Positions 1 to 14,857 of a DNA stretch of 20,000 bases are shown one piece after another. The stretch lies in the IMG/VR virus record IMGVR_UViG_3300020036_009184; one strand, written 5' to 3'. This DNA is from an uncultured virus (IMG/VR IMGVR_UViG_3300020036_009184) (lineage: Duplodnaviria > Heunggongvirae > Uroviricota > Caudoviricetes). The notes under the pieces were generated by a model. It was not told the origin of the DNA. It was given only the letters and a program-made list of their open reading frames with translations, and made no database searches. The position numbers and the translations under genes were made by a program. The stretch's first letter is position 1, and each line of letters begins with the position of its first letter.

Positions 1-120
1 GATGTTGTGGTGGATGGTATGGAGTTTCGTATTCGGGTTGTGGGTGCGGTGTATGAGAGTATTGGAATTATGTTCCCCGGCCTTCCTATCCTGATTCAGT
101 ATAATGAGCGGCCGTTTTAG
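1..120 (+). CDS. 3' end of a hypothetical protein (truncated by the window edge)
   Basis: Frame 1 is open from base 1 to TAG at 118-120 (...DVVVDGMEFRIRVVGAVYESIGIMFPGLPILIQYNERPF*) and co-oriented with all downstream genes. Confidence 0.5.
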   Translation, partial: DVVVDGMEFRIRVVGAVYESIGIMFPGLPILIQYNERPF

Positions 121-167
121 AGATCGTCGCTCCTGCGCAGTATTTTGGGCCTTAAATCGAATTATAG

Positions 168-503
168 ATGGATATTCCGACATTGACAATAAGACCATTG
201 GTGAAGCGGGTTGATATTATCGCTTTTTTCAAGGATGTGCTACCTGGTGCGGGAGTTACGGGGTATTGTGAGGTAATGGTGAAGCGGAGTTTGTATCGGA
301 ATATCCGCCTTTGTTTTGGGAGGTTGTTTGGTGGTGCTATTGTGAGTGAGCAGGATAGGTTCTGGTGTAAGATTGGTGGGGTGAGTTATCTTGTTGTGGC
401 CTTTCATGGTGGACATAGAGATGTTGTGGTGTTGGGACATTCTGTCTTTATTGAAATGGAGAAAGTAGTTTTGAAGAAAAAAAATGGGAATGAAGCACAT
501 TAG
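168..503 (+). CDS. hypothetical protein
   Basis: 111-aa ORF with no recognisable motif; its last 18 nt overlap the 5' end of the tRNA-like element at 486. Confidence 0.55.
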   Translation: MDIPTLTIRPLVKRVDIIAFFKDVLPGAGVTGYCEVMVKRSLYRNIRLCFGRLFGGAIVSEQDRFWCKIGGVSYLVVAFHGGHRDVVVLGHSVFIEMEKVVLKKKNGNEAH

Positions 504-635
504 GATGTGCCCTGTATGAAAGTCGATAGTTGTCGCCATATTGTTTATCGAGAACGATATTTTGGGCAACATTCCTGGGGAACAGGATTTAGGCAGGCCG
601 TCAGATGGTAGCCGGTTCGATTCCGGTCATTTCCA
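486..635 (+). ncRNA. tRNA-like RNA 1 (150 nt) with a structured insert in place of the anticodon loop
   Basis: Acceptor stem GGGAATG(486-492)/CATTTCC(628-634) with G3.U70 and discriminator A635; D arm GCAC-ATTAGGAT-GTGC(495-510); T arm GCCGG-TTCGATT-CCGGT(611-627). There are 100 nt between the D and T arms. Confidence 0.75.
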
Positions 636-674
636 CAAATAGGTCCAACGCATAGAGTTTTTGTTGGACTGGTA

Positions 675-817
675 GCGATGGTGGCGGAATGGCAGACGCG
701 CTGTAAGTACCCTAAAAGAAACGCATAGAATGGGGGAACTCGGTAGACATACTGCAAGCGTGAGCAGTAGGACTTTGTAAGTTTAAATCTTTGCAGGTTC
801 GAATCCTGCCCATCGTA
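675..817 (+). ncRNA. tRNA-like RNA 2 (143 nt, tRNA-Leu-type body) with expanded anticodon/variable region
   Basis: Acceptor stem GCGATGG(675-681)/CCATCGT(810-816) with A817; Leu-type D arm TGGCGGAATGGCAGACGCG; T arm GCAGG-TTCGAAT-CCTGC(793-809). About 92 nt lie between the D and T arms and there is no canonical 7-nt anticodon loop. Confidence 0.8.
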
Positions 818-830
818 CATCCATAAAAGA

Positions 831-948
831 GTACACTGAGAGTATGTTTGAGTCCTAGATGCTACCGAATAACCTGGTCGGTCGGGAAACGCGGGAAGGA
901 TGTTGATGGCAAATGGTAGGTGTACGTTGAACAAGAGCCGGTAACGGC
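831..948 (+). ncRNA. candidate structured RNA downstream of tRNA-like RNA 2
   Basis: Helices GTACAC(831-836)/GTGTAC(920-925) and CTACC(862-866)/GGTAG(915-919), plus a GNRA hairpin GCCG-GTAA-CGGC(937-948), in a region with no + strand ORF in the track. Confidence 0.35.
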
Positions 949-955
949 ATAGAAC

Positions 956-994
956 GCCTTGGTGTTTTTATCTTAGGTTGACCAAGGCACTTTT
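956..994 (+). terminator. possible intrinsic terminator closing the RNA cluster
   Basis: Inverted repeat GCCTTGGT(956-963)/ACCAAGGC(981-988) followed by ACTTTT. The loop is large and the U tract is short. Confidence 0.45.
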
Positions 995-1020
995 AAGAAT
1001 CAATTCAATTATCATAAATT

Positions 1021-1278
1021 ATGGCACAACAAGTATTTGCGTTTTCAAAAACGATTCCGGTTAAGACTACGACTGGCTGTATCGAGGTATTGCTGTCAAA
1101 GCAACGCGACGATGAAGGCGATAATTATGTGCAGATTCTGGCGTGGCACAAGAATGCTGACGGTGAGTTCTTTTCGCAGGAAGAGTCTGTGATTATTGAC
1201 GAGTTTATGATTCCGTGTTTTATCATGGACTTTTCCGAGGGTAGTGCTCAACGATTTGTTCAGGAGTTTCAATTTTGA
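1021..1278 (+). CDS. hypothetical protein (acidic)
   Basis: 85-aa ORF with ATG after an AT-rich leader typical of Bacteroidota initiation regions. Confidence 0.75.
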   Translation: MAQQVFAFSKTIPVKTTTGCIEVLLSKQRDDEGDNYVQILAWHKNADGEFFSQEESVIIDEFMIPCFIMDFSEGSAQRFVQEFQF

Positions 1279-1283
1279 TCACG

Positions 1284-1577
1284 ATGAAACGAGTAATCCT
1301 TACTATTCCAGCCCGGGCGAGAAAGCCTTACGAGTGCATGGCTGGCGCTGTTATCAAGTTGCATCTGGAGGGCCTTATTCAGACTGCGGCGCTGACCATT
1401 GACGAGTATGATGCTATCGCCGAATTAAAGGCGAATAACTGGATGATTGTGCCTGGCCAGGTATATGAGCGCCGGAATACCATTGATGAGGGTCCGCCGC
1501 GTAGGTTGTTTACCTTTCTTTGCTTACCTCAGATAGATGCTATCTGTGTAAAATATAACCTTTATTCAAACAATTGA
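1284..1577 (+). CDS. hypothetical protein
   Basis: ORF 1275-1577; ATG at 1284 preferred. Tightly packed with neighbours; has ARKPYEC and CLPQIDAIC Cys motifs. Confidence 0.7.
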   Translation: MKRVILTIPARARKPYECMAGAVIKLHLEGLIQTAALTIDEYDAIAELKANNWMIVPGQVYERRNTIDEGPPRRLFTFLCLPQIDAICVKYNLYSNN

Positions 1578-1580
1578 GTG

Positions 1581-1817
1581 ATGAAAAAACTTACAAATGC
1601 CTTAGTTTTGATTGGCGCGGTGTTCGTCATCATCGCCCTGTTGTTTTCGGGTATCGCCAGATCGGTGTTTTATAAGGCGCTAGAATCCGGCCAACCTGTG
1701 CCACAAAGGTTTGATACGGCACTGTTTTGCAGCAACTCGTTTTTAGTGATAGGTTTTGGTTGCATCGGACTCGCTCTCCTAGTGGCTGTGTGTTATTCCT
1801 TTTCAAATCGAAAATAG
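1581..1817 (+). CDS. small membrane protein (two predicted TM helices)
   Basis: Two hydrophobic stretches, ALVLIGAVFVIIALLFSGIA and FLVIGFGCIGLALLVAVCYSF. Confidence 0.7.
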   Translation: MKKLTNALVLIGAVFVIIALLFSGIARSVFYKALESGQPVPQRFDTALFCSNSFLVIGFGCIGLALLVAVCYSFSNRK

Positions 1818-1819
1818 TT

Positions 1820-2299
1820 ATGGAACATTGTTCATACGAGTTATCTACCCAACTGCGAGATGCAGGTTTTCCACAACCGGAGCCGCAGGCGGGGCAGGTT
1901 TGGTATAGCGGTACATTCAAAACGCCATTTATCATTATTTTTGATAAAGAGGCGCTGGATAAGAGGTATAGAGAACATGGGTATCACAAAAAAAACAAGG
2001 AACGGGGAAACTTTGAAGGCTTTTGTCGGATATCCTCACTGACTGACGGCAGTGTAGGCGATATAGGGTTGGCGAATTGCGTGTATGCTCCTACGGCATT
2101 GGATATACTCAAAGAACTAGGTGGTCAGTACCCTCCGTTCGTTTATTACGGCAAAATTGCTGATCTATGGTCGTGTCTGGATAGGGAGCCGCTTATTCTG
2201 TCGTCGAATAAAATCATGCAGTCGCCAATTGGGTTTTCTGGCAAGTCGGCTGTTGTGGCTATTTCGAAATTCTGGCTTCACAAAAATAAAAAATCCTGA
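1820..2299 (+). CDS. hypothetical protein, paralog of 2302-2718
   Basis: ATG at 1820 just after the upstream stop. Shares SY...LRDxGFPQPEPxxGQxWY and CVYxPTxxDxLxxL motifs with the next gene. Confidence 0.8.
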   Translation: MEHCSYELSTQLRDAGFPQPEPQAGQVWYSGTFKTPFIIIFDKEALDKRYREHGYHKKNKERGNFEGFCRISSLTDGSVGDIGLANCVYAPTALDILKELGGQYPPFVYYGKIADLWSCLDREPLILSSNKIMQSPIGFSGKSAVVAISKFWLHKNKKS

Positions 2300-2301
2300 T
2301 T

Positions 2302-2718
2302 ATGCTCAGTTACAAAAAGTGTATTGAACTCAGGGATAATGGATTCCCGCAACCGGAGCCAGCGTTTGGCCAGTTTTGGTATGCTTGGGAAGGTATTACG
2401 ACCGTTGGTGAGGTATTTGAAACTGAGCAGGGGATACTTGTTGGCGTACATCCAATGGGCGGTGGATTTCTTGTAGAGCCAATAAACATTTGCGTCTACA
2501 GCCCTACTGTTGAAGATATGTTGTCGATGTTGAGCCCTGGTTATTGCTTGGAAAGGGTGGTTGGTTCTGGGTGGGCTGTGATTTACTGGAAAGTAAACAA
2601 AGAGCGCGTAGTAATACAGATGGGGGGCAGCCCTATTGATGTATTGGCAAAAGCATGGGTTAATCGCCGTGATATATTTGAAGATAATGGCCGGCAGGAA
2701 GGTGGCGCCGATAAATAG
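2302..2718 (+). CDS. hypothetical protein, paralog of 1820-2299
   Basis: MLSYKKCIELRDNGFPQPEPAFGQFWY...CVYSPTVEDMLSML...SPIDVLAKAW aligns by eye with the upstream gene. Confidence 0.8.
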   Translation: MLSYKKCIELRDNGFPQPEPAFGQFWYAWEGITTVGEVFETEQGILVGVHPMGGGFLVEPINICVYSPTVEDMLSMLSPGYCLERVVGSGWAVIYWKVNKERVVIQMGGSPIDVLAKAWVNRRDIFEDNGRQEGGADK

Positions 2719-2731
2719 CCTGATTGTCGTT

Positions 2732-2800
2732 GGCGCTATGGTGTAATGGTAGCACGCTCTCTTAAATGAGGGAAGTCCAGATTCGATTTCTGCTGCGCTG
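2732..2800 (+). tRNA. degenerate tRNA (Gln-like body), anticodon undetermined; possible pseudo-tRNA
   Basis: GGCGCTA-TG-GTGT-AATGGTA-GCAC-G-CTCTC-TTAAAT-GAGGG-AAGT-CCAGA-TTCGATT-TCTGC-TGCGCTG. D arm and T loop are intact; anticodon loop is 6 nt, the T-stem base has a C:C mismatch, and the acceptor 3' strand is one base short. Confidence 0.65.
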
Positions 2801-2824
2801 CAATATTTGTTTTTAATGAGGTAA

Positions 2825-2903
2825 GGTCGTCTTGCTGGTGCTCCGATTTATCGCAGCCGTCCGTAATGCACTGCGGATTCCGTGCCTGGACGGTGAGATG
2901 ACC
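2825..2903 (+). ncRNA. candidate structured RNA
   Basis: 13-bp helix GGTCGTCTTGCTG(2825-2837)/CGGTGAGATGACC(2891-2903), including G.U pairs, with internal TCCGTA/TGCGGA and alternative GCCGTCC/GGACGGT helices. Confidence 0.4.
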
Positions 2904-2939
2904 GAAGCCTTAAAAAATGTTCCGATGGGGAAGAAAAGA

Positions 2940-3107
2940 ATGTTTGAAGTTGGAGAGATAGCCTTACGGGCCAATCGCTCCGTAGAGCCCATGCGGTGGG
3001 TGGTATTCACTGTCAATGAAACGTATTTGCCGTTGATAGAAGAGAATCCTGCCGATTATAAGAAAATTCGTAAAGTAAAAAATGATGATCGTATCTCTCA
3101 CAGGTAA
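2940..3107 (+). CDS. hypothetical protein (start uncertain: 2898, 2925 or 2940)
   Basis: Part of ORF 2832-3107. ATG at 2940 has an A-rich leader and avoids the structured element; the end overlaps the ruvA start. Confidence 0.55.
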   Translation: MFEVGEIALRANRSVEPMRWVVFTVNETYLPLIEENPADYKKIRKVKNDDRISHR

Positions 3108-3678
3108 ATTCGCCGCAATATCCCCATCCATGGTCGTTCTTGACGTACATGGTGTAGGCTATGCTGTCAATATTCCGCTATCCACCTTCTCAGAGATTGA
3201 GGGCCATGCCGAAGGACGGCTGTTGATATACCATCGCTTTTTGCAAAACGGGGAACAGTCTTTGTACGGTTTTTTTTCAAAAGAAGAGTCGCAAATGTTC
3301 GGGCACTTACTCGGAGTATCCGGCGTCGGTGGCTCGACCGCTCTTCTTATGCTGTCTGGAATGTCCGTGGAAGACCTGCAGCACGCTATCGCAACAGAAA
3401 AGGTGGCCGTGCTGGAGAAAATAAAAGGTATTGGCAAAAAGACGGCGGGGCTTATCGTCCACGAACTGAAAGATAAGTTCCCGAAAACGGAGCGAGGGCC
3501 AAATATCGAAATGTTTGTTGCCGATACCGAGTTGCGAGACGCTGCCGTAGATGGATTGCAGGCTTTGGGCTTCAAAAAAACCGAAGCACTGAAAGTGGTG
3601 GAATTTGTTTTGTCAAAAACTCCGGACGCCTGCCTATCCGACTTGATCCGCTCATCCCTTCAACAAATGTCAAAATGA
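3082..3678 (+). CDS. ruvA: Holliday junction DNA-binding protein RuvA
   Basis: OB domain (VVLDVHGVGYAV...LYGF), two HhH motifs (LLGVSGVGGSTAL and LEKIKGIGKKTA..IVHELKDK) and domain III (DAAVDGLQALGFKKTEA); 198 aa. Confidence 0.95.
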   Translation: MMIVSLTGKFAAISPSMVVLDVHGVGYAVNIPLSTFSEIEGHAEGRLLIYHRFLQNGEQSLYGFFSKEESQMFGHLLGVSGVGGSTALLMLSGMSVEDLQHAIATEKVAVLEKIKGIGKKTAGLIVHELKDKFPKTERGPNIEMFVADTELRDAAVDGLQALGFKKTEALKVVEFVLSKTPDACLSDLIRSSLQQMSK

Positions 3679-3755
3679 CCCTCCTGTACTGTTTTCTCGT
3701 AGTCTCCACCCTTTTTTGCTTCTTTTACACCCCAAAAACGAATACTGAGTCATGA
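3675..3755 (+). CDS. 26-aa hydrophobic micro-protein (below the ORF track threshold)
   Basis: MTLLYCFLVVSTLFCFFYTPKTNTES*. ATGA overlaps with ruvA upstream and with the 3752 ORF downstream fill the gap exactly. Confidence 0.6.
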   Translation: MTLLYCFLVVSTLFCFFYTPKTNTES

Positions 3756-4105
3756 GAAAACTTATTCTGCCTACAGGCGCCGGAAAAACGGATCGACTGA
3801 TCAAGGCGTCGGCTTCAACCTGGTGTTATATGGTTGTTCATACCATTGAAGACGCGGTGCGGGTGAGCCGGCGAGCATTGGAATTAGGCCTGGATATTCC
3901 GCACCCTGTCACGTACTGGGAGTTCAAACAAGGTAATTATTACGCCAAAGGGATCAAAGGTTTTTTGATCGATAATGCGGATATGTTACTACAATACCTA
4001 TCTACCGTCCCTGTTGTTGGTATTTCGATCAATAATGATTCATTGTGCGAAATACAATTGACCGAGGATCAACAAAAGGCACTTCAACCTCTTTCAAGTA
4101 ACTGA
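3752..4105 (+). CDS. small P-loop NTPase-like protein
   Basis: Walker A-like LPTGAGKT at the N-terminus and Walker B-like FLIDNAD; only 117 aa. Confidence 0.65.
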   Translation: MRKLILPTGAGKTDRLIKASASTWCYMVVHTIEDAVRVSRRALELGLDIPHPVTYWEFKQGNYYAKGIKGFLIDNADMLLQYLSTVPVVGISINNDSLCEIQLTEDQQKALQPLSSN

Positions 4106-4108
4106 GCC

Positions 4109-4381
4109 ATGAGATATTTTTCAATCTGCCTATGCGTAACCCTGTCTACCGGTGTGAATATCATCGGTGATATGCTGGTGCAGTCTATGGATGGGAAATA
4201 CCCGTCTATGTTCAATCTGAAAGCCGTGTGCGCGAAAAAGGCCGGCACGCCAGAAAATCCAGCGATCAATGTATCGGTTATGGGTATCACTGAAATGACG
4301 GAACAGGATTACAATGACTACATCACGCCGATGCCGAATATCGCACCCGGCTCTCTTGTTTCACCTTTTTCTCAAAATTAA
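4109..4381 (+). CDS. hypothetical protein
   Basis: 90-aa ORF whose stop overlaps the next start (TAATG). Confidence 0.7.
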   Translation: MRYFSICLCVTLSTGVNIIGDMLVQSMDGKYPSMFNLKAVCAKKAGTPENPAINVSVMGITEMTEQDYNDYITPMPNIAPGSLVSPFSQN

Positions 4382-4815
4382 TGTGGGCAATCTCTATACG
4401 ACAACCAAATGCCTCCCTTATTGCCAGCGGGAAGAAGAAATACTTGGAGATGCCCGGGTATGCTTGGCAGCGGGGGCCTATTTTGATACATGCCTCCAAA
4501 TTTAGGGATAACTCATTGTTTGTTTCGTATGATATTGATAGCGAAGTGCTGACGCTGCGTAATCAGGTAGCGCCAAAGAAATACCGGGTGCCGTGGGAGT
4601 TATACGTCGCAGAAAAATGCGCTCTTTGTGTTGCAGACCTGGTAAATATCAAAGAGTTTTACGACAAACCTGACCTCATACGTGGCGCGTGTTGTGATTG
4701 GTTGCCAAATGCCTGCCTGTGGGAGTTTGAGAATGTTCGATTGGTAGAGCGGGTAGATGCGAAGTTGACTGGTGGTTTTATTCAAGTAGATGATTCACTC
4801 ATAAAATACCTGTAA
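4381..4815 (+). CDS. ASCH-domain protein (PUA-like, predicted RNA-binding)
   Basis: AISIRQPNASLIASGKKKYLE...W.RGPILIHASK and a C-terminal W.FENVR match the ASCH signature (SIxQPxAxxIxxGxKxxExR). Confidence 0.85.
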   Translation: MWAISIRQPNASLIASGKKKYLEMPGYAWQRGPILIHASKFRDNSLFVSYDIDSEVLTLRNQVAPKKYRVPWELYVAEKCALCVADLVNIKEFYDKPDLIRGACCDWLPNACLWEFENVRLVERVDAKLTGGFIQVDDSLIKYL

Positions 4816-4819
4816 AATA

Positions 4820-5086
4820 ATGAATATTCGAAATGATTCAGCCGGTGCGGTATCGCATGAACACATTCTTAGTAAGGGATTTAGGGTTTTTGAAACCATG
4901 AAAGGGAATGATATGGGGCAGATGGAGTGGGAGATACCGCAATACTCAAATGGAAGTATAGTAATTACTGGTGGGTACTGGAATTGGGTCGTAAAAGATG
5001 CCGAGGGACAAGCGCTTTGGGAGGGATGGTGGAACTCAAATGATGAGTTTGATGAAGTCATGAACACACTAAATAGCAACCTATAA
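4820..5086 (+). CDS. hypothetical protein
   Basis: 88-aa Trp-rich ORF, coupled to the next gene by TAATG. Confidence 0.7.
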   Translation: MNIRNDSAGAVSHEHILSKGFRVFETMKGNDMGQMEWEIPQYSNGSIVITGGYWNWVVKDAEGQALWEGWWNSNDEFDEVMNTLNSNL

Positions 5087-5382
5087 TGGAAAAGTACAAT
5101 ATCCGTAGTCCGCATCCAGTCCGTATCTCTCAAATGAGAGTTGGGGACATCGGCTTTATTGGCGGAGGGTCTTGGCATAAAGTAAAGGGGGCCTTTTTTA
5201 CGGCTTCTGACCGGTTTTTATATCCCGAGGACGAGACGCACGTCGTTATGGTTAAAAAGACTGTGGATGGCCTATTCTGCGCTCCTATACCCTGGATGGA
5301 GAAACTTGTGGCGGAGAATAAAAAGGATCTTGATCAAAATATTCGCTGGGTACGGTTCGTGCCTGTAAAAACTGAAAAATAA
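5086..5382 (+). CDS. hypothetical protein
   Basis: 98-aa ORF in the tightly packed + strand operon. Confidence 0.7.
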   Translation: MEKYNIRSPHPVRISQMRVGDIGFIGGGSWHKVKGAFFTASDRFLYPEDETHVVMVKKTVDGLFCAPIPWMEKLVAENKKDLDQNIRWVRFVPVKTEK

Positions 5383-5383
5383 A

Positions 5384-5719
5384 ATGGGCATAAACTTATT
5401 TGTCAAAAAAGTTATCGGCAAAACAACGGAAGAATTATGGAATGGCAAAACTGTGCCTTTTTATGAAACGGAAGCGCTAGAGACATTCGATTCCATCCGT
5501 CATTCTGGAGACCGCGAGTTTGTGGTTGAAAATGAGTTTGTGTTTATGGATGACCAGAACCCTGTTGAAGAGCAAGAATTGGCTCGGCCAAAAGATTTTG
5601 CAAAATGCAGGGAGTGGGTAAAAAACACACGGTATCCAGAAGGGAATAAGAATAGACTGTTAGGAGCATTAGATATGCTTGAAAACGACGAAAGCCTTGT
5701 GTTTAAATGGTCTTGGTAA
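5384..5719 (+). CDS. hypothetical protein
   Basis: 111-aa ORF with 1-nt gaps on both sides; MGINLF N-terminus and aromatic C-terminus (FKWSW). Confidence 0.75.
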   Translation: MGINLFVKKVIGKTTEELWNGKTVPFYETEALETFDSIRHSGDREFVVENEFVFMDDQNPVEEQELARPKDFAKCREWVKNTRYPEGNKNRLLGALDMLENDESLVFKWSW

Positions 5720-5720
5720 T

Positions 5721-6362
5721 ATGGAGTTTTATTCAGAACCGCCAATCGTAACCTGCGATGTCTGCCAGTACCAGTACATGCCGGCAAAGAGTAAGCGCGA
5801 GCAATGCTGTCCAAACTGCGCGCATATCGAAAAGTATGGAGAATCGATCTTCGCAATGAAAAAGCGGAAGCAAAAAGAACAGCACGAAAAGTGGCGGAAA
5901 AAGGCCCAAGAAAAGCGAAAACTCAATCCACCAACACCGCGTCCGAAAATAGCAATGCGCTCGGAGAAAGGTAAGGTGATCGCCAGGAAGGTGGCGGAAA
6001 TGAAGGCTGAGGTAAAGATGGAGGCGCTGGATGGAGAATACGCCGAGTGTAAAGGATGTGGCCGTCATTTTCAGACAATAGATGCCAGCCATAAGGTTCC
6101 GCTATCGCAAAGTATAGCCTTGGCGGCGAATCCGGAGAACATTACACTACTATGCCGGGATTGTCACATGAAATGGGAAAACGGAACCGTGCCACAAATG
6201 ATCGAACTGGATTGCTTTGTTGATGACATGCACTACCTGTTCGATATGGATCCGGAGCGGTTCTGGAAGATATTCTATCGGTGCACCGATGAATGGGAAA
6301 AGTCTCCAACACCCAAACTCGGGCGTATTATATCAAAAATGGAAGCATTTGAAGGCAAATAG
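5721..6362 (+). CDS. Zn-binding HNH endonuclease
   Basis: ATG at 5721. N-terminal CDVC...CCPNC zinc ribbon, a basic helix, then CKGC...DASHKVPLSQ...ENITLLCRDCHMKW HNH motif. Confidence 0.85.
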   Translation: MEFYSEPPIVTCDVCQYQYMPAKSKREQCCPNCAHIEKYGESIFAMKKRKQKEQHEKWRKKAQEKRKLNPPTPRPKIAMRSEKGKVIARKVAEMKAEVKMEALDGEYAECKGCGRHFQTIDASHKVPLSQSIALAANPENITLLCRDCHMKWENGTVPQMIELDCFVDDMHYLFDMDPERFWKIFYRCTDEWEKSPTPKLGRIISKMEAFEGK

Positions 6363-6411: not shown

Positions 6412-8145
6412 ATGAGTAAAATTATTCAATCCCATGCGCTGTTTGCCGAGGCAATCACCGAAATGCGGGACCTGGTTGCCTCTACAATGGGGCCATTCGG
6501 TTCTCCTGTTATGCTGACCAGGCAAAACCAGCCGGCGCTTATCTTCCGCGATGGCGCCCAGGTCATTCGTTCCTACATGCCCGCCGACGCGATCAAAGGG
6601 AATGCTATTGGCCGTCTACGCGATGCTGCCGAAGCAACCCTGAAAGCCGCTGGCGATGGCACCAGTACGACGACTGTACTACTGGCAACCCTCTACCTCT
6701 CCGCGATGGAACAAATTACGGAGTACGAAAAAGCCGGCCAATCTGTTGTGCGCCGCCTGGTTGCTGACCGTATTGTTGAAATTCTCGGCCAAATGGAGAA
6801 ATACCTGGTCGAAAACGCAATCCAGGTCATGGATCCGGACGGCAATATCGACATGGGGCTTTTGCAAAAAGTTGCAACCATTTCAGCCAACAACGATGCC
6901 GCTATCGGGGAAATCGTGGCAAATCTGGTGGCCCAGATTGGCTCCGATGGTTCGGTGCAAGTCGAATACTCGAAATCCGGCGAACTGGAAACCGAAAAAA
7001 TCCCCGGCTACGTATTCCCGGGCGGTTTGTATCACCCATACTTCCTCCAGCAAGGCCAACGCCAGGAAGAGTGGATTGATCCGTATATCGTACTGGTGAA
7101 CGATTCCTTGGTTGCTATGAGTGATCTGAATGCGATCACAACACCTTTCATGGATAATTCCCTAAAACAAAATGAGGGCCGTGGCCTGGTGTTGGTTTGC
7201 AGTGACCTGAATGGAGTCGCCCTCGGGACTGCGATCAGCCGGCAAATGAAGGGTGGTGGCCTTATGCCGCTTATCTGCGTTCGCCCTCCACGCGGCATTG
7301 ATGTCAACCAGTTCTTTGAGGACTTATCAGCCCTTACCGGGGCAAAAGTGTTCTCCAAAGACAAGGGAAGCCTGCTGAAAGACTTCAAATGGCAGAAGGA
7401 TATTGGTACCTGCACTCGTATTATGTCTTCCCTGCAAAAAACGACCATCGTTTATAATCAGCCCGAAGGTCCGACCAACAAACCGACACTTTCTGGCCTG
7501 CTGGAACGCCTGGCGTCCGAATACAAAGAAGCAGCAGTTGAAGATCAGCCAATAATCCGGGAGCGTATCAATCGCCTGAGCGGTTCGGTTGGTATTATCC
7601 GCATCCCGGGGCTTACCCAGGCAGCTGTGGTATGGTCTAAAGAAATTGTCGAGGACTCGTACCTGGCGGCACAATCCGCGCTGAAATACGGCGTACTTCC
7701 CGGCTGCGGCAAAGCGCTCCTGAATGCTTTTGATCACGTTGTTGATATGAATGTGGTTATCTCGCAAGAAAATGAGGATCTTATTGCTTCACTGTCAGTG
7801 TCCGGCGCTGTAGGCGAACTCATTCGTTCCATTTTTGCCAATGCGGGCACGAAAAAACATGCCAGTGACTCAATTATCAGCCTTTTGGGTGGTGCGGATT
7901 TTGGGGAAACCATCTCCGTTTCCCCCGAATTTGTTTTCTGGAGCCGCCGCGTTGCTGACGAAATTGCAGTGGCGCCCGGGCAGCCGGTAAACTCCATTGC
8001 AAAACTCGAAGAGCACTGTATTGTCGATGCTGTCGATGCCGGTATCCTTGATTCCGCACACGGCGTAATCTCTGCTGTTCGTCATACGGCCTCCGAAATT
8101 CACCTCTGGATCACAACACGAAACTGGGTCAAAGAAGATGCATAA
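6412..8145 (+). CDS. groEL: divergent group I chaperonin (GroEL/Cpn60-like)
   Basis: TMGPFG, FRDG, AGDGTSTTTVL (GDGTTT), VATISANNDAAIG, EDLSALTG, RERINRLSG, IVEDSYLAAQSALKYGVLPGCG and GILD motifs in GroEL order; 577 aa; no GGM tail. Confidence 0.92.
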   Translation: MSKIIQSHALFAEAITEMRDLVASTMGPFGSPVMLTRQNQPALIFRDGAQVIRSYMPADAIKGNAIGRLRDAAEATLKAAGDGTSTTTVLLATLYLSAMEQITEYEKAGQSVVRRLVADRIVEILGQMEKYLVENAIQVMDPDGNIDMGLLQKVATISANNDAAIGEIVANLVAQIGSDGSVQVEYSKSGELETEKIPGYVFPGGLYHPYFLQQGQRQEEWIDPYIVLVNDSLVAMSDLNAITTPFMDNSLKQNEGRGLVLVCSDLNGVALGTAISRQMKGGGLMPLICVRPPRGIDVNQFFEDLSALTGAKVFSKDKGSLLKDFKWQKDIGTCTRIMSSLQKTTIVYNQPEGPTNKPTLSGLLERLASEYKEAAVEDQPIIRERINRLSGSVGIIRIPGLTQAAVVWSKEIVEDSYLAAQSALKYGVLPGCGKALLNAFDHVVDMNVVISQENEDLIASLSVSGAVGELIRSIFANAGTKKHASDSIISLLGGADFGETISVSPEFVFWSRRVADEIAVAPGQPVNSIAKLEEHCIVDAVDAGILDSAHGVISAVRHTASEIHLWITTRNWVKEDA

Positions 8146-8488
8146 ACTGTCAGATTACAATCTCGTCCCCAAACACCTCTTGGTGCTTCCTCAATTTGAT
8201 GACCATTCAGGATCAGTGCTGCAGGTGTCTTCCGTGAATAAGGAATTGTCCATCGGCCAGGTAGTCAAGCATAATTCCGGCAGGTTTATCCTGTATTTTT
8301 ACCCACACGCCGCCGATCACAGCGTGCCGCATGTTGTCCCAGACGATAAGGTTTTCAATATCAGTTACAAACGCGCTGCCAGCCAATCCATCAAACTGGT
8401 TGATGAAAATGGTGACGAAACAGAATACAAGGTGGTGCATGAAGACGATATAACCGGATGGTTCACATCATCTGAGATAACAGCATGA
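8138..8488 (+). CDS. single-domain co-chaperonin (GroES/Cpn10-like)
   Basis: LVPKHLLVLP...SGSVL...IGQVV...EYKVVHEDDI follows the GroES pattern (PLxDRVxV..GGIxL..GxVV..EYLIxxExDI); overlaps the groEL stop. Confidence 0.7.
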   Translation: MHKLSDYNLVPKHLLVLPQFDDHSGSVLQVSSVNKELSIGQVVKHNSGRFILYFYPHAADHSVPHVVPDDKVFNISYKRAASQSIKLVDENGDETEYKVVHEDDITGWFTSSEITA

Positions 8489-9270
8489 TACCGAATACAA
8501 ACTATGTCCTGGTGCGACCGATAGGTACACCAGGACATCATCATAAGTCAGGACTGCTCGTTGCCGAGTTTGCTGAGACGCATCTTTTGAAGCCCTGTTT
8601 CGGGGTCGTAGAGGCCGTATGCGACGACTTGTATTATGGTGGTCACGAAGCCTTGGCGCTAGGCAAAGATGTCGCTGGCGACAATCTGGAGCGCGTGCGG
8701 GCTATTAATGAGCGGTCATTGAGTTATGATGTGGATATGGAAGTGAAGGTCGGCGATATCGTATTATTTCGCTACATCGTACACATGGATGAAGATGTAA
8801 CGCTGCCCGATGGCCGGATGTTGATTCGGTATGATGACCTGATTGTAAAAATAGCCGATAGGTGGTCAATTGGTGATTTAAGGTGGGATGATAATGACGG
8901 CGCCTTTTTTGTAGCAATTGGAAGGCAGAAGCATCGCCTTCTGAATCCACCTAAAATACAGCCCCTTAATGGCGCAATTCTTGTGGAAATGCGCGATGTT
9001 GGTAATGAGTCCGGGGTACTGGACAGTGGAATGGAGAAAGAGGTTGGGTGGGGCACGGTGGTATCGGAAGGTATGTTGGTGCGCAGTTATTTACTGTGGC
9101 CGGAAAAAGGTGGCGACTTTGACGTATCTTTGGCAGGCAAAACGATCTCTTTCAACCATAAAGCGGCTGTTCGGATTGAAGAGGATACGTTTCGCTTATT
9201 GAACACTGAAACAAAATACCCGTTATATTACCTATACCGGGCATTTGTAACCGGATACTTGGATGGCTGA
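8485..9270 (+). CDS. tandem double-domain co-chaperonin (Cpn20-like, 2x GroES)
   Basis: Domain 1: PNTNYVLVRP..KSGLLV..GVVEAV..EVKVGDIVLF..LIRYDDLI. Domain 2: IQPLNGAILVE..ESGVL..GTVVSEG..GKTISF..LYYL. Confidence 0.8.
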   Translation: MIPNTNYVLVRPIGTPGHHHKSGLLVAEFAETHLLKPCFGVVEAVCDDLYYGGHEALALGKDVAGDNLERVRAINERSLSYDVDMEVKVGDIVLFRYIVHMDEDVTLPDGRMLIRYDDLIVKIADRWSIGDLRWDDNDGAFFVAIGRQKHRLLNPPKIQPLNGAILVEMRDVGNESGVLDSGMEKEVGWGTVVSEGMLVRSYLLWPEKGGDFDVSLAGKTISFNHKAAVRIEEDTFRLLNTETKYPLYYLYRAFVTGYLDG

Positions 9271-9907: not shown

Positions 9908-12900
9908 ATGCGTTTTTTATTTTCCCTGATACTTACCCTCTTTGCGATTACCGCGCAATCCCAGGTGATGAAACTCACCTCGGCAGGCAAATCTATCTCG
10001 ATTTCGATTGACGATATCGTTTTTGTTCGCGCCGGCACGCCGTCTGGCAGCGTCATTACTTATGGCCAAACTCAGGCGCGATTAAACGTCTCGCAGACAA
10101 TGAGTGCCATCCAGAGCGCATCGTGCTCAAACCTGGTATCGCTCAGTGTTGTTGAAAACATATCCGGCCAGCCACAATCTACAACGCTGCTTTTCAATGT
10201 CAGGATGATCGCCGAGGTTATCCCAGACGTGAATAATAAGGCGGTGATGACGATACGCACCAGTCCCAGAGTAAAATATACAACGGTATCCTCCTATACC
10301 TCCGTGACTAACACGATTTCTGCTTGTATTACTGGCGGAGGTGGCGGTGGCTCTGTGGTGACGGACGCTACACTGTCCGGCGACGGATCAGGCGGCGACC
10401 CATTGAGTGTTAATCCGATAGGAACGTCGCTGATCGAGAATAATGCCGTCACAAATGGGAAGTTGGCCACTATGCCAGCGTTGACAATCAAAGGTAATAA
10501 TACCGGTGCGACAGGCGCCGCATTAGACCTGACAAAAGTGCAGGTACAGTCAATGTTGTCTGTAGACGACCTCATTACATTGACTGGTGTAGCGGAAGGT
10601 AATACAAATTTGCTGACGTTTACCGGTACGATTATCCCAAACAACTCCACTATCAAGGCGGCACTCCAGGCATTGGAGACAGCGGTCGAGATTATTGGCG
10701 ATACAATTACGGTTTCGGATAGTCCGAAGATTGATCTGACGATGCTCAACCGGAATATCACAGCAACGCTGGTGCCTGGCGGCGTAGCGTTGACCGATAT
10801 TGCGGCCAGTGGCGCCTCAAATGGGCAAATAATCAAATTCAATGGCACAAACTGGGTCGTTGGCTCAGATGTTACCGGTAGCAGTATTGATAGTTCGTTC
10901 CAAAAACTGGCAGGTATTGTCGCTGGCGGTTATGCCAACAAGCGATACACCGATAATAAATGGAGCCGTGGTAAAATGCTGATTGGGTTCAATCCGACCG
11001 ATTATGGCTCTTTGGATACTCTGGGGCAGATCGTAATTGCTCCACCAGCAACCGGCACAACAACTGCAATTCTTTTTAAGCAAGCAGGAGCCGCAAATAG
11101 CATCTTGAAAACAGATGGCTCGAATCCATTTGAACTGGATGGGCCATATACGATTGTCAAGAGCACTGGCGCAAGCCCTGTTTTGTTGAAGATGCAAACA
11201 GCATCGGTTGGGACGTATAACATGGATTACAATAGTGCTCTTTTCCGGATCAACAATGAGGGCGCAAGTAGAGCAATGCTGGCAATCCATACGAGCGCGG
11301 CGAACAACGCCCTGTTTGTTGATGCGAACACCAATCTGAATGTTGGCGGCAACTCGATTAGTGTTGCAAAGATTGGGGCCTTTACCTCAAGTGGCGCTAC
11401 GGCGTCAATGTTAGGGATGGTGAATAGTACCGGCACGTCTCGATTCTTCCGGTCAAACGCTACACCCGAAGGTGCAATTACGGGCATTGTTGGCGATTGG
11501 GCGTTCTCCACAACAGGCTTATTTGCCAAAATTACCGGCGCGGGTAATACTGGATGGGGCGAGTACATGAACTTAAAAAAGAATCACGGAGCTACAAACG
11601 GACAGTTGTTAAAATGGAACACTGTAGCATCTGCTTGGGTGCCGGCAAACGACGACGGGAATACATATACTGGAGGTATCGGCATAAGTGTCATTGGCAC
11701 TGTCATAAACAATGATGGCGTAACTTCAATAAACGGAGAAATTGGCGACGTTGTGGATTATGTCAAACTTACTGACCCTGTTGGCACGACTGGCGGTGAC
11801 GTATCGGGGACGATCGACGAAATGATTGTCATTGGTTTACAGGGGACGCCGGTTGACGGCACGGTTCCGACATTGGGCCAGGTGCTGGCTTTTGATGGCA
11901 CGAACTGGATACCGACAACTACCGGAAGCGGCGGCGGTGGCATAACAAACTTCACAGGGGCGCAGGGAGCGGCGCCCGGTGCCGCCGCAAGTAGCCATGA
12001 TGGCGAAACTTTTAGAAACGATGTTTATGGCGAGTTATGGGGGTCAAATGGCTCGGTATGGTATCCTTTTTCGTATGGCGGGAAGGAGTGCCAGGATACG
12101 GTATTGGTATCCGCTATCACGGTGCAGCCCGGAGGTTCTGTAACAACGGGATCTCCGCTTGTTCGTAGTTCTTTGGGTGTATGGGAGCACTTGTACAACT
12201 ATGCTACCCCGAATACAATCCCGGATGGTGTTGTGACCGATGTTGTATCTGGCCCTCGGGCGATTATCCAGTATTGTGGTGTCAGAAAAGGTAGTGGTGC
12301 CACGCCAAACAGTTCTTACTACGTTGACCAGTCTGCTAATACAGGCTTTACCACAACTAAGCCGGCTTCAAATATTCGACCGCTAGGGAAAATCGCTTCA
12401 AATGGGGATTTTCTGGTAAATGCCGGACTGCTTTTTTCTAAAGACAACTTTCCTGGGATTATCAAGAACGGGTCATTGTCGGGTTCTGGTATTGTCGGCG
12501 ATACGCTTCGTATTTCAACCGGAGACAAAGGAGATGTGGATGTAACTTCGTCTGGAAATGTTTGGACATTGGATACCAATGCGGTGAATACGGTAAAAAT
12601 ACTTGATGCGGCAATAACAATGGCGAAAATCGCACAGGCAGGAGCTACAACCGGGCAAGTAATTAAGTGGAATGGCAGTGCCTGGGCTCCGGGAATAGAT
12701 GGTGGAGGGAATGATAGCACCCTTGCAGATAATGGTGTTTCTCTGTCAGGGAAAACGGTACAATTAGGCAATGCAGCGGGCGGGACAACATCTCAGTTTA
12801 CCGCCAATAGATATTTACCTCAAAATAACTTTGGTCTATTTGTAGGAAACAATGCAATGACATCGTATGTAAGAATCTCAGGGGATAGCGCGTCGACAAC

Positions 12901-14857
12901 GGGGATTCTTAATTTCAGCTTCCCGTCCAGTCCCAATACTGCATACACGAAAGTGATAAATCCAATTATAAAAGGTACGCAGAACACAGCATTTTATGAG
13001 GGTATATCGTCTAATGCGCAATCAGGAAATTCGCCTAACGCCGTATATATGGCAGGGTGGAATTTAAACCCCGGAGGATCAAAAATTGAAGCAGGAAAGC
13101 CATATATCGGAGAGTCGTGGGAAAGTAATTATCGACCGAGCGCACCGACCGTATATCCAAGGTTTGTAGAAAAGCATGAAATATATATGCCTTCGTATTC
13201 AAACACTCAAAGGCGATTGAGTAGTTATACGATTAACGAATCCGCAACCGGTGCAAACTTTATTGACTACTACCACACTGTTGACGCATTTAAAATACGA
13301 GACACGTCTGGAGTCGACTATTTTCGCATTACAGGAAATAACAGTTCTCCGACAGGGCGTTTTTCATCCCTAATTCAATCGGCAGGGAACAGGGCATTGT
13401 CTTTAACTGTGGACAGTACATTGAATACATTTGTAATAACAAATAATTCGCTTGCTGCGACCAAATCAACAAGCAATTTTGTTTTTTCCGGGTTCAGAGA
13501 GTATAATTTCAATGACTATTTAGGGAGGTCAATATTGAGATCAGTCACAAGTGCGGGAGGTAATAATGTAGAGATGGGTAGCACTTCTTACGCGACAGAA
13601 CACCACCTTAGAACAAACAGCCTGTTTGGAGCGTATGGGGTATATATTGAAGCCGATGTAAATACGCAAACATCGCTAACAACAAGGGGAAATCTATTTG
13701 TAAAATCAGCAACAAATCAGACTATTTTCGGACAGCGTTCGGATATAAATATGGGGTACATGGCAAATACGGGATCATTTGCCATTCGAACAAATGCGTT
13801 ACAAGTTGGGCCATCTGCCGGGACATCACTTCCATTGGGTGTTACATTACAAGTAAACTCCAATCTTGCCAATACATCTGCATTGCAGCGCTGGCAAACT
13901 ACCACAGACAGCGCAAAGATATTCCTTACCTCAAAGGACCCCAACTCTATCCTTACCGGGCGCGTAGGCGATTTCGCCTTTGGCACAAATGGAAAATGGT
14001 ATGGTAAAGTCACAGGAGCAAATACGAATACAGGTTGGGGAGCATTTCTTAATCTGGTGGATGCGAATTCGGCAACAACTGGTCAGGCGCTAAAGTGGAA
14101 CGGTACTGCATGGGCGCCAGCAACCGATGTAAGTTTGGCCAATACAGATCAAACATTGACAGCGAACCGGGCCATTGCATTGGGTACGAATAGTCTAACT
14201 GTTTCTTCGTCAGTAGTTGCAGATCAAAGCATCACTGCGACATTCAATAATGATGGAATTGTAATGTCTGCCGTTGACGCCTCGGGTGCCGATGATATCA
14301 CAGGTGAAATATTCCTGTCAGGCGCTTTCGCCTCTATTGGTGTAGACAATGGCGTGTCGGCTACTTCGTACACGAACTATCAGGACGCTAGTTCAACTTG
14401 GAAGTGGAATGATATTACCATTACCCTAGATGCTGCCAACGGTATCTCGATTGCCAATGCCGACACGAATGATGGCATGAAATATACGGCCAATAACGAA
14501 AACGCCATATTGCTGACAGATAGAAACGTCCCGGATATGAATACAGTGAGAAGGAATAATCGGGAACGATTCACGGATGTCACATCTACGACGTCTCCGG
14601 TGGATCTTACCTCGACAAATAAAGACAACCTGATCAACCAGGGCGGGACCCAGACGACTTTTACCTTCAATCTGCCGGCAACCCCTGGTGATGGACAGAT
14701 TTGCGAACTGACCTTTTCAAATATTGTTACGACGCTCACAATTGGTGCTCAGGGCGGTATCACGATATTGGGCACCGCTCCTACTACCGCTGCGGTCGGG
14801 ACTCGCCTGGAGTACAAATATTACGCAACAATAACCTCTTGGATTCGAGTACAATGA
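9908..14857 (+). CDS. 1649-aa tail-fibre/adhesin-like protein with an N-terminal signal peptide
   Basis: G/T/S/N/A-rich; five GQxxxW/F-N/D...W fibre repeats, poly-Gly hinges and a duplicated ...GNTGWG block; N-terminus MRFLFSLILTLFAITAQS-Q. Confidence 0.75.
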   Translation: MRFLFSLILTLFAITAQSQVMKLTSAGKSISISIDDIVFVRAGTPSGSVITYGQTQARLNVSQTMSAIQSASCSNLVSLSVVENISGQPQSTTLLFNVRMIAEVIPDVNNKAVMTIRTSPRVKYTTVSSYTSVTNTISACITGGGGGGSVVTDATLSGDGSGGDPLSVNPIGTSLIENNAVTNGKLATMPALTIKGNNTGATGAALDLTKVQVQSMLSVDDLITLTGVAEGNTNLLTFTGTIIPNNSTIKAALQALETAVEIIGDTITVSDSPKIDLTMLNRNITATLVPGGVALTDIAASGASNGQIIKFNGTNWVVGSDVTGSSIDSSFQKLAGIVAGGYANKRYTDNKWSRGKMLIGFNPTDYGSLDTLGQIVIAPPATGTTTAILFKQAGAANSILKTDGSNPFELDGPYTIVKSTGASPVLLKMQTASVGTYNMDYNSALFRINNEGASRAMLAIHTSAANNALFVDANTNLNVGGNSISVAKIGAFTSSGATASMLGMVNSTGTSRFFRSNATPEGAITGIVGDWAFSTTGLFAKITGAGNTGWGEYMNLKKNHGATNGQLLKWNTVASAWVPANDDGNTYTGGIGISVIGTVINNDGVTSINGEIGDVVDYVKLTDPVGTTGGDVSGTIDEMIVIGLQGTPVDGTVPTLGQVLAFDGTNWIPTTTGSGGGGITNFTGAQGAAPGAAASSHDGETFRNDVYGELWGSNGSVWYPFSYGGKECQDTVLVSAITVQPGGSVTTGSPLVRSSLGVWEHLYNYATPNTIPDGVVTDVVSGPRAIIQYCGVRKGSGATPNSSYYVDQSANTGFTTTKPASNIRPLGKIASNGDFLVNAGLLFSKDNFPGIIKNGSLSGSGIVGDTLRISTGDKGDVDVTSSGNVWTLDTNAVNTVKILDAAITMAKIAQAGATTGQVIKWNGSAWAPGIDGGGNDSTLADNGVSLSGKTVQLGNAAGGTTSQFTANRYLPQNNFGLFVGNNAMTSYVRISGDSASTTGILNFSFPSSPNTAYTKVINPIIKGTQNTAFYEGISSNAQSGNSPNAVYMAGWNLNPGGSKIEAGKPYIGESWESNYRPSAPTVYPRFVEKHEIYMPSYSNTQRRLSSYTINESATGANFIDYYHTVDAFKIRDTSGVDYFRITGNNSSPTGRFSSLIQSAGNRALSLTVDSTLNTFVITNNSLAATKSTSNFVFSGFREYNFNDYLGRSILRSVTSAGGNNVEMGSTSYATEHHLRTNSLFGAYGVYIEADVNTQTSLTTRGNLFVKSATNQTIFGQRSDINMGYMANTGSFAIRTNALQVGPSAGTSLPLGVTLQVNSNLANTSALQRWQTTTDSAKIFLTSKDPNSILTGRVGDFAFGTNGKWYGKVTGANTNTGWGAFLNLVDANSATTGQALKWNGTAWAPATDVSLANTDQTLTANRAIALGTNSLTVSSSVVADQSITATFNNDGIVMSAVDASGADDITGEIFLSGAFASIGVDNGVSATSYTNYQDASSTWKWNDITITLDAANGISIANADTNDGMKYTANNENAILLTDRNVPDMNTVRRNNRERFTDVTSTTSPVDLTSTNKDNLINQGGTQTTFTFNLPATPGDGQICELTFSNIVTTLTIGAQGGITILGTAPTTAAVGTRLEYKYYATITSWIRVQ
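10811..14128 (+). repeat. dispersed protein-level repeats in the fibre gene
   Basis: GASNGQIIKFNGTNW (~10811), GATNGQLLKWNTVASAWVP (~11588), PTLGQVLAFDGTNWIP (~11867), GATTGQVIKWNGSAWAP (~12641) and SATTGQALKWNGTAWAP (~14069). Confidence 0.85.

Follow-up and report, generated by a model that had tools for sequence, protein, structure and literature searches.

Phages T5 and T4 encode small RNAs that resemble tRNAs. In T5 (NC_005859), two genes in the tRNA cluster, oriented like the tRNAs, encode RNA1 (144 nt) and RNA2 (125 nt), for which the record gives 'tRNA-like stable RNA with unknown functions'. The T4 record closes its tRNA cluster with rnaC (species 1 RNA, 139 nt) and rnaD (119 nt), which have the orientation of the tRNAs. 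Passages of PMC9697503 describe T4 RNAC as a stable RNA seen on a Northern blot, and the roles of RNAC and RNAD are stated to be unknown in parts of papers from 2010 and 2022 (PMC3014915, PMC9697503); no Rfam 15 family was found on the T4 or T5 tRNA-like RNAs. A further anticodon-less RNA, transfer-messenger RNA (tmRNA), is described in a section of PMC3985003 as charged by alanyl-tRNA synthetase (AlaRS). Here we analyse element 1, a tRNA-shaped RNA encoded in a 20,000-nt stretch of DNA from an uncultured tailed phage (IMG/VR record IMGVR_UViG_3300020036_009184), hereafter the window. Our preferred reading, which we hold to be fairly probable, is that element 1 is a non-decoding, tRNA-processed small RNA of the class of T5 RNA1/RNA2 and T4 RNAC. 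As such, it is an alanine-type variant of an already known, unexplained kind of phage RNA. Its extent and the two parts that set it apart from a tRNA are as follows.

486 to 635, plus strand: element 1, a 150-nt tRNA-shaped RNA with an alanine-type upper half (sequence, minimum free energy (MFE) fold, ARAGORN).
511 to 597, plus strand: central domain in place of an anticodon arm (MFE structure equal to the centroid).
598 to 610, plus strand: variable-arm-like hairpin CCGU-CAG-AUGG plus UA, 13 nt (sequence and fold).

The acceptor stem pairs GGGAAUG (486-492) with CAUUUCC (628-634) over 7 bp, including G488.U632, and is followed by the discriminator A635 and then CAA. Positions 8 and 9 are A8 and A9. 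The D arm (495-510) has the stem GCAC 495-498/GUGC 507-510 and a loop containing GG (G18 G19), and the T arm (611-627) reads GCCGG-UUCGAUU-CCGGU. Between these arms, CCUGU 511-515 pairs with GCAGG 593-597 (ACAGG 582-586 being an alternative partner) as the outer part of a central helix, 511-520/588-597, of 10 bp with an A516/G592 mismatch and an inner part at 517-520/588-591. The helix is capped by a three-way junction that carries hairpin 1 (529-570) and hairpin 2 (573-587, stem UCCUG 573-577/CAGGA 583-587). The short hairpin before the T arm has the stem CCGU 598-601/AUGG 605-608, and the linker base A610 (position 48) is able to form a Levitt-type pair with U500 (position 15), giving U15/A48 where A15/U48 is usual.

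When 486-638 was folded without constraints, MFE and centroid both gave exactly this structure, within the nested pairs to which such folds are limited, pseudoknots being beyond their reach. The MFE was -50.1 kcal/mol, compared with -39.6 +/- 3.7 for 200 dinucleotide shuffles (z -2.86), none of which folded as well. The stretch 511-610, comprising the central domain, the short hairpin and two linker bases, reached a z of -1.9; the central domain is almost fully paired, and the longest single-stranded stretch in the whole fold is 8 nt. Element 1 is more than a chance arrangement. An initial sequence-only reading had proposed the 7-bp acceptor with G488.U632, A635 and the D and T arms at coordinates that all agree with the sequence, and its helix of 511-515 with 593-597 around two hairpins, followed by CCGT-CAG-ATGG, is what the unconstrained fold returned. 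The same reading had inferred an anticodon-less RNA, and a search of 506-612 for an anticodon-type hairpin (5-bp stem, 7-nt loop, U33, purine 37, one mismatch allowed) came back empty. Consistent with this, the Rfam tRNA model (RF00005) found no match on 486-638 at its gathering score or at E<=10, Rfam at gathering thresholds placed nothing on element 1, and ARAGORN in default mode made no call on it, calling only 2731-2801.

AlaRS reads G3.U70, together with A73, in the acceptor helix and does not need the anticodon. Element 1 carries the full alanine identity set: beyond the G3.U70 (G488.U632) and A73 (A635) on which the initial reading had relied, it has G1-C72 (G486-C634) and G2-C71 (G487-C633), and 29 of its last 30 nt are identical to those of a true tRNA-Ala(UGC) in locus L001. 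Two true tRNA-Ala genes share the set. Although element 1 and tRNA-Ala have this acceptor identity set and the T arm in common, element 1 differs from the class I tRNA-Ala by its missing anticodon arm, its 13-nt variable-arm-like hairpin, A8, the lack of residue 26 and another D arm. The 18-nt D arm recurs in two IMG/VR loci. One is a normal tRNA-Thr(GGU) in L156; the other is a 74-nt tRNA-like gene (L157:1494-1567), uncalled by ARAGORN, that lies directly 3' of a true tRNA-Ala(UGC). This gene begins with GGGA and terminates in UUCC-A-CCA, with A73 and an encoded CCA, and it has the same alanine set. G3.U70 is thus kept in this one relative found, while pairs 5:68 and 6:67 have changed on both sides in a compensatory manner and 7:66 is A.A; its anticodon-arm site holds just a 4-bp stem with a 6-nt loop.

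With T5 RNA1 and RNA2, element 1 shares the acceptor stem, the D and T arms, a long centre where the anticodon arm would be and a hairpin before the T arm, whereas its alanine-type upper half with G3.U70, its D arm and its three-way-junction centre are its own. The fold of T5 RNA1 consists of a leucine-type D arm, a long central helix, the hairpin and the T arm, and that of T4 rnaC of a T arm with the loop UUCGAAU, a hairpin preceding it and a long rod. A hairpin immediately before the T arm is seen in element 1, T4 rnaC, T5 RNA1 and the metagenomic locus L059. Unlike element 1, T4 RNAC has no clear D arm, an imperfect acceptor stem, a UA end and no G3.U70. The features that place element 1 with these RNAs are a length of 120-150 nt, acceptor and T arms that are kept, an anticodon arm that is replaced, and a location on the same (plus) strand as two genes of tRNA type, a twin at a distance of 39 nt and the tRNA at 2731-2801. 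The twin, element 2, and the signals around the pair are listed here.

466 to 473, plus strand: box TAGTTTTG, 12 nt upstream of the first base of element 1.
636 to 674, plus strand: spacer with a 9-bp hairpin, 642-650/662-670 (fold z -2.53).
675 to 817, plus strand: element 2, a twin RNA with a leucine-tRNA-like upper half (sequence, ARAGORN and a covariance-model score of 68.7 bits).
956 to 988, plus strand: terminator-like hairpin GCCUUGGU...ACCAAGGC followed by ACUUUU (fold z -2.28).

Element 2 has the acceptor GCGAUGG/CCAUCGU, A73, the D arm GCGGAAUGGCAGACGC and the T arm GCAGG-UUCGAAU-CCUGC, with a centre of 92 nt (700-791) between the two arms. Its D arm is identical over 22 nt to annotated tRNA-Leu genes of several cultured phages, and a search with the word spanning the junction of D arm and centre gave 0 matches. 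Bacterial leucyl-tRNA synthetase (LeuRS) reads A73 and the architecture of the D and T loops, without need of the anticodon. When introns were allowed, ARAGORN called both RNAs, as Pro(GGG) at 486-636 with a 59-nt intron (score 103.0) and as Gly(ACC) at 675-818 with a 61-nt intron (104.5). Since 33 unrelated loci with a total of 558,923 bases yielded 1 such call at the same setting, two adjacent calls are not chance. The two centres are complementary to other parts of the window at chance level only (<=11 nt).

The box at 466-473 matches TAnnTTTG, which we take to be the Bacteroidota-type -7 promoter box; such boxes are weakly enriched in the window (20 matches, compared with 13.2 +/- 3.5 in shuffles), and others precede the tRNA at 2731 and the GroEL gene. 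The hairpin at 956-988 was not listed by a scan for consensus terminators, and the stretch 820-956 folds no better than its shuffles (z -0.12). Related contigs from sequencing runs bear on the borders of the two RNAs. The X3 contig matches the window at 118-699 and 792-1570, with 94 other letters in place of 700-791, and shows 8 differences in 118-699 (6 at listed positions, all at or below 377) and 33 in 792-1570; judged by these counts, element 1 appears at least as conserved as its surroundings, and probably more so. The X9 contig equals window 637-808 exactly and diverges from 636 backwards, directly after element 1.

We then searched IMG/VR with a pattern in which the leucine-type D arm is followed, after a gap of 75-105 nt, by the T loop. 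It matched at least 120 phage loci (L034-L153), giving at least 85 distinct elements, or 86 with element 2 of the window. Among the matches listed, the upper half is near-constant: AGUCAGG-UG-GCGGAAUGGUAGACGC ... ACAGG-UUCGAAU-CCUGU-CCUGACU-A-CAA. The pattern set no requirement on the acceptor, yet 56 of the 86 elements have AGUCAGG; all seven acceptor pairs form in 73, six in 6, and four or fewer in 7, and the base 3' of the acceptor is mostly A, followed by CA. For covariation, an alignment (A2) was built from 72 rows, one per centre prefix, after removal of rows with fewer than six acceptor pairs, a step that favours the percentage of paired positions. Changes on both sides occur in 7/7 acceptor pairs and 2/5 T-stem pairs, and double-sided changes number 96 cells, compared with 12.3 +/- 3.2 in shuffles (none of 500 reached that number) and no more than 23 with a slid partner column.

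The centres tell a different story from the near-constant upper half: conservation is confined to their first and last one or two positions, and the 86 sort into 66 classes that share no detectable similarity, 52 of which have a single member. The centre of element 1 shows no sequence similarity to any of them, and neither of the window's two centres resembles any of the 157 loci compared. Lengths run from 72 to 102 nt and pile up at the lower bound of the pattern, so the true range is wider; neighbouring copies have centres of 50-110 nt. The centres fold somewhat better than their shuffles (mean z -0.81, n=85, 41% below -1), and compensatory changes keep their helices within the few classes that have several members (L059 vs L079/L130, L050/L126, L051/L056, L063/L151). 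A canonical anticodon hairpin is found in 3 of the 86, compared with 3.1 +/- 1.8 after shuffling. Family elements stand in clusters among ordinary tRNAs with which they share the strand, and a locus often has two or three of them; ordinary tRNAs without an encoded CCA end in N73 followed by CA in 10/10 cases shown. No conserved neighbour protein was found, the largest protein cluster occurring in 11 of the 120 loci. Where pairs of loci had one similar flank, 12/32 had unrelated centres, and where both flanks were similar, 0/45 did; by this comparison, mosaic joints fall at family elements. A BLAST search of cultured phages with the member L034 gave only unrelated T-arm matches.

A covariance model of the 72 metagenomic rows of leucine type (R1), from which window 675-817 had been left out, matched element 2 over its full length (68.7 bits, E 1.9e-14). 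It also matched T5 RNA1 (33.4 bits, E 4e-6) and T5 RNA2 (25.4 bits, E 3e-4) over their full length, and T4 rnaC in part (15.5 bits, E 0.066). These scores tie the metagenomic leucine-type family, and with it the twin of element 1, to the T5 RNAs.

Several observations weigh against our assignment of element 1. R1 found no match on 486-636 at E<=10, so its link to the T5 and T4 RNAs is one of architecture and context, not sequence homology. Position 8 is A instead of the near-universal U and residue 26 is absent, both of which could disturb the tRNA core. Conservation of G3.U70 extends to a single relative (n=1), and the alanine-type scaffold is rare: a 22-nt word from the T arm and acceptor led to one other metagenome-contig record, a normal tRNA-Ala, and a 24-nt word from the same region had 0 matches in viral contigs. 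Two of the X3 differences in 118-699 have no listed position and possibly lie inside element 1. The four matching runs supply contigs that are probably DNA (X3 and X9 are so labelled); contigs from X20, an RNA library, cover 121-440 and 680-737 and not element 1. Finally, because the RNAC acceptor is imperfect and ends in UA, members of the class need not be charged.

Of the other explanations, the least improbable is that element 1 is a dead tRNA-Ala that an insertion has disrupted, or a module for recombination at the DNA level without RNA function. The 29/30 match of its 3' end to a true tRNA-Ala, the unrelated centres in 12 of the 32 one-flank locus pairs, the abrupt departure of the X9 contig from the window at 637 and the swap of 700-791 in the X3 contig would all fit such a history. 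Yet all stems of element 1 are intact and the whole RNA outfolds 200/200 shuffles, and the D arm is unlike that of tRNA-Ala, so this was no simple insertion into a tRNA-Ala gene. The compensatory changes in the family's acceptor and centres point to selection on RNA, and the T5 annotation and the passage on the RNAC Northern blot (PMC9697503) describe stable RNAs for the T5 and T4 counterparts. We regard this explanation as improbable.

A shade less probable still is an intron-containing tRNA, in which a centre of 59-77 nt is excised, by a ribozyme or by a phage or host endonuclease with a ligase, to leave an ordinary decoding tRNA. The ARAGORN calls of Pro(GGG) and Gly(ACC) speak for it, as does the loop CUGGGGA that excision under the Pro model would create, with C32, U33 and G37 in place. 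When the centre was shuffled and the arms kept, however, element 1 was still called in 70/300 cases, 36% of which reached the real score, and element 2 was called as an intron-bearing tRNA in 284/300. Because shuffled centres are called alike, the intron call reflects the arms only. The family behaves in the same way, with calls on 74/86 real elements (mean score 106.4) and on 68-79/86 shuffled ones (mean 105.7). The anticodons called are scattered over 17 specificities (16 amino acids and one stop-codon call), Leu anticodons making up 16/74 real calls and 94/733 shuffled ones.

Structure and gene content are no kinder to excision. The Pro model combines an alanine acceptor with a variable region of 24 unpaired nt, and strict bulge-helix-bulge motifs number 1, compared with 2.3 expected, and lie away from the borders. 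Neither group I introns nor small self-cleaving ribozymes were detected by an Rfam scan of 1-3200 at E<=10; group I introns, with a minimum of 200 nt, are much longer than the centre. The window's open reading frames (ORFs) showed no domain of an RNA ligase, a kinase or a splicing endonuclease. In the X3 relative, the whole of 700-791 of element 2 is replaced, would-be anticodon stem included. No contig joins across the centre at 516-592, although contigs are a weak test of splicing. Excision to an ordinary tRNA, which the initial reading had named as an outcome that would refute it, thus gains no support. Our search of the literature on phage tRNA introns and tRNA-like inserts found nothing describing such an RNA, and the theta-ribozyme papers, in the sections consulted, concern elements outside tRNAs.

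The miniature tmRNA, SmpB mimic or SmpB-dependent ribosome-rescue RNA that the sequence-only reading had put forward is very improbable: element 1 shares G3.U70, A73, A8 and the missing anticodon with the tRNA-like domain of tmRNA, and the sole Rfam signal on it is a tmRNA match at the two ends of 486-638 (20.2 bits, E 1.8e-5 in a 3.2-kb search), but that score lies far below the gathering score of 47 and covers 96 nt for 310 model positions at the tRNA-like ends only, ARAGORN calls no tmRNA, the RNA lacks an mRNA-like domain, its longest single-stranded stretch is 8 nt, none of the three frames of the centre gives a short tag with a hydrophobic end before a stop inside it, it has under half the size of tmRNA and a true D stem that tmRNA is without, as that reading had itself remarked, and the features of its twin are those of leucine, not alanine. 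What stands of the early interpretation is an anticodon-less RNA of alanine type; the tmRNA-like part falls, and the twin element and the T4 and T5 precedents had not entered into it.

The window is DNA of a tailed phage, with nearly all its ORFs on the plus strand. They include genes for GroEL (phrog_5725, 2.5e-70), a large terminase, a portal protein, a RuvA-like protein and an HNH nuclease. At about 25% identity, the terminase resembles those of Flavobacterium and Cellulophaga phages, and the GroEL shares 94% identity with a GroEL on a 5.3-kb contig (L032) of a metagenome-assembled genome (MAG) labelled Saprospiraceae in its record. This contig stops short of the RNA region, and nothing resembling window 1-3200 was found in the remainder of the MAG. 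An alignment search with GroEL returned 30 distant viral loci (23-27% identity) as well as L032; single-protein searches of viral contigs for related loci, with the ORF at 1275-1577 and with GroEL, gave none, and megablast of window 1-6000 found no match among cultured phages. In run X1, labelled as a wastewater metagenome, 8 contig pieces match parts of the first 3 kb, 7 with an identity of >=99%; this run may represent the source sample.

Some further features of the window and of the related loci deserve record. The GroEL is 577 aa long, and two genes on lies an ORF of 261 aa whose Cpn10 match is weak (E 0.0011) and misses the cut-off, the region spanning window 6412-9270; neither PHROGs nor Pfam has a family that matches the 1649-aa ORF at 9908-14857. 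The related X3 contig carries 541 other letters in place of window 1571-2752 (1182 nt, with the ORFs at 1578-2718), a second mosaic exchange near the RNA genes. The tRNA at 2731-2801 is labelled tRNA-??? by ARAGORN, with a two-base anticodon, and scores 31.5 bits with the Rfam tRNA model; its stem CUCUC/GAGGG closes a loop of 6 nt (UUAAAU), and the acceptor has mismatches at two pairs. A 6-nt loop is likewise present in L157:1494-1567. Four of the IMG/VR loci carry short genes of 69-81 nt (L118:144-218, L146:545-625, L133:169-237, L145:299-372) that have the AGUCAGG/CCUGACU acceptor and odd anticodon loops, one of them the 8-nt CUUUAAAA; in the others ARAGORN sees an anticodon of 2 or 4 bases or one that reads a stop codon. 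On the minus strand of L156, GC-rich stretches of about 130 nt lie between tRNA genes (1120-1450); one ends in a T-arm-like GUGAG-UUCGAAU-CUCAC, which ARAGORN reads as part of a tRNA-Thr(CGU), and these stretches are possibly further embedded RNAs.

If element 1 is a non-decoding small RNA processed as a tRNA, both RNAs would be transcribed as a short unit from the promoter-like box at 466-473 to the hairpin at 956-988. RNase P and the tRNA 3'-end machinery would release them, the N73-CA trailer being that of the true tRNAs in related clusters; CCA addition would follow, and the products would accumulate as stable L-shaped RNAs. Neither would read a codon. Because the alanine and leucine identities are independent of the anticodon, elements 1 and 2 are plausible AlaRS and LeuRS substrates, and that both upper halves are of such an identity may be no accident. 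Actual alanylation of element 1 in the cell, as its sequence would allow, is possible but somewhat doubtful.

The centre would then be the working or cargo part, held on a nuclease-resistant, correctly processed tRNA scaffold, and could be a protein-binding, effector or decoy domain; the constant halves would also give homology for the exchange of centres between phages. In mascRNA, the tRNA-miRNA units of gammaherpesviruses and the laboratory 'tRNA scaffold', a tRNA-like fold recruits RNase P and RNase Z and stabilises the attached RNA. These are eukaryotic or artificial, with the attached RNA mostly outside the tRNA fold, and serve as an analogy only. A bolder proposal is that tRNA upper halves bearing cargo form a system, so far uncatalogued, that is widespread in phages. 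The upper halves would be drawn from tRNA identities that synthetases recognise independently of the anticodon, alanine in element 1 and leucine in its twin and in the 120 or more IMG/VR loci, and the RNAs would be processed, CCA-tailed and aminoacylated like tRNAs while presenting swappable structured centres; their charging would be functional. We consider this proposal unlikely, though well within view. If it were true, charging would serve a function such as the capture of EF-Tu or of a synthetase, or the decoying of host defence nucleases directed at tRNAs.

Two tRNA upper halves side by side in an uncultured phage indicate that this kind of RNA is not limited to coliphages. Its leucine type is abundant in viral metagenomes, with centres that are hypervariable yet structured, and the alanine type represented by element 1 could give a handle on the function of the T4- and T5-like RNA class.

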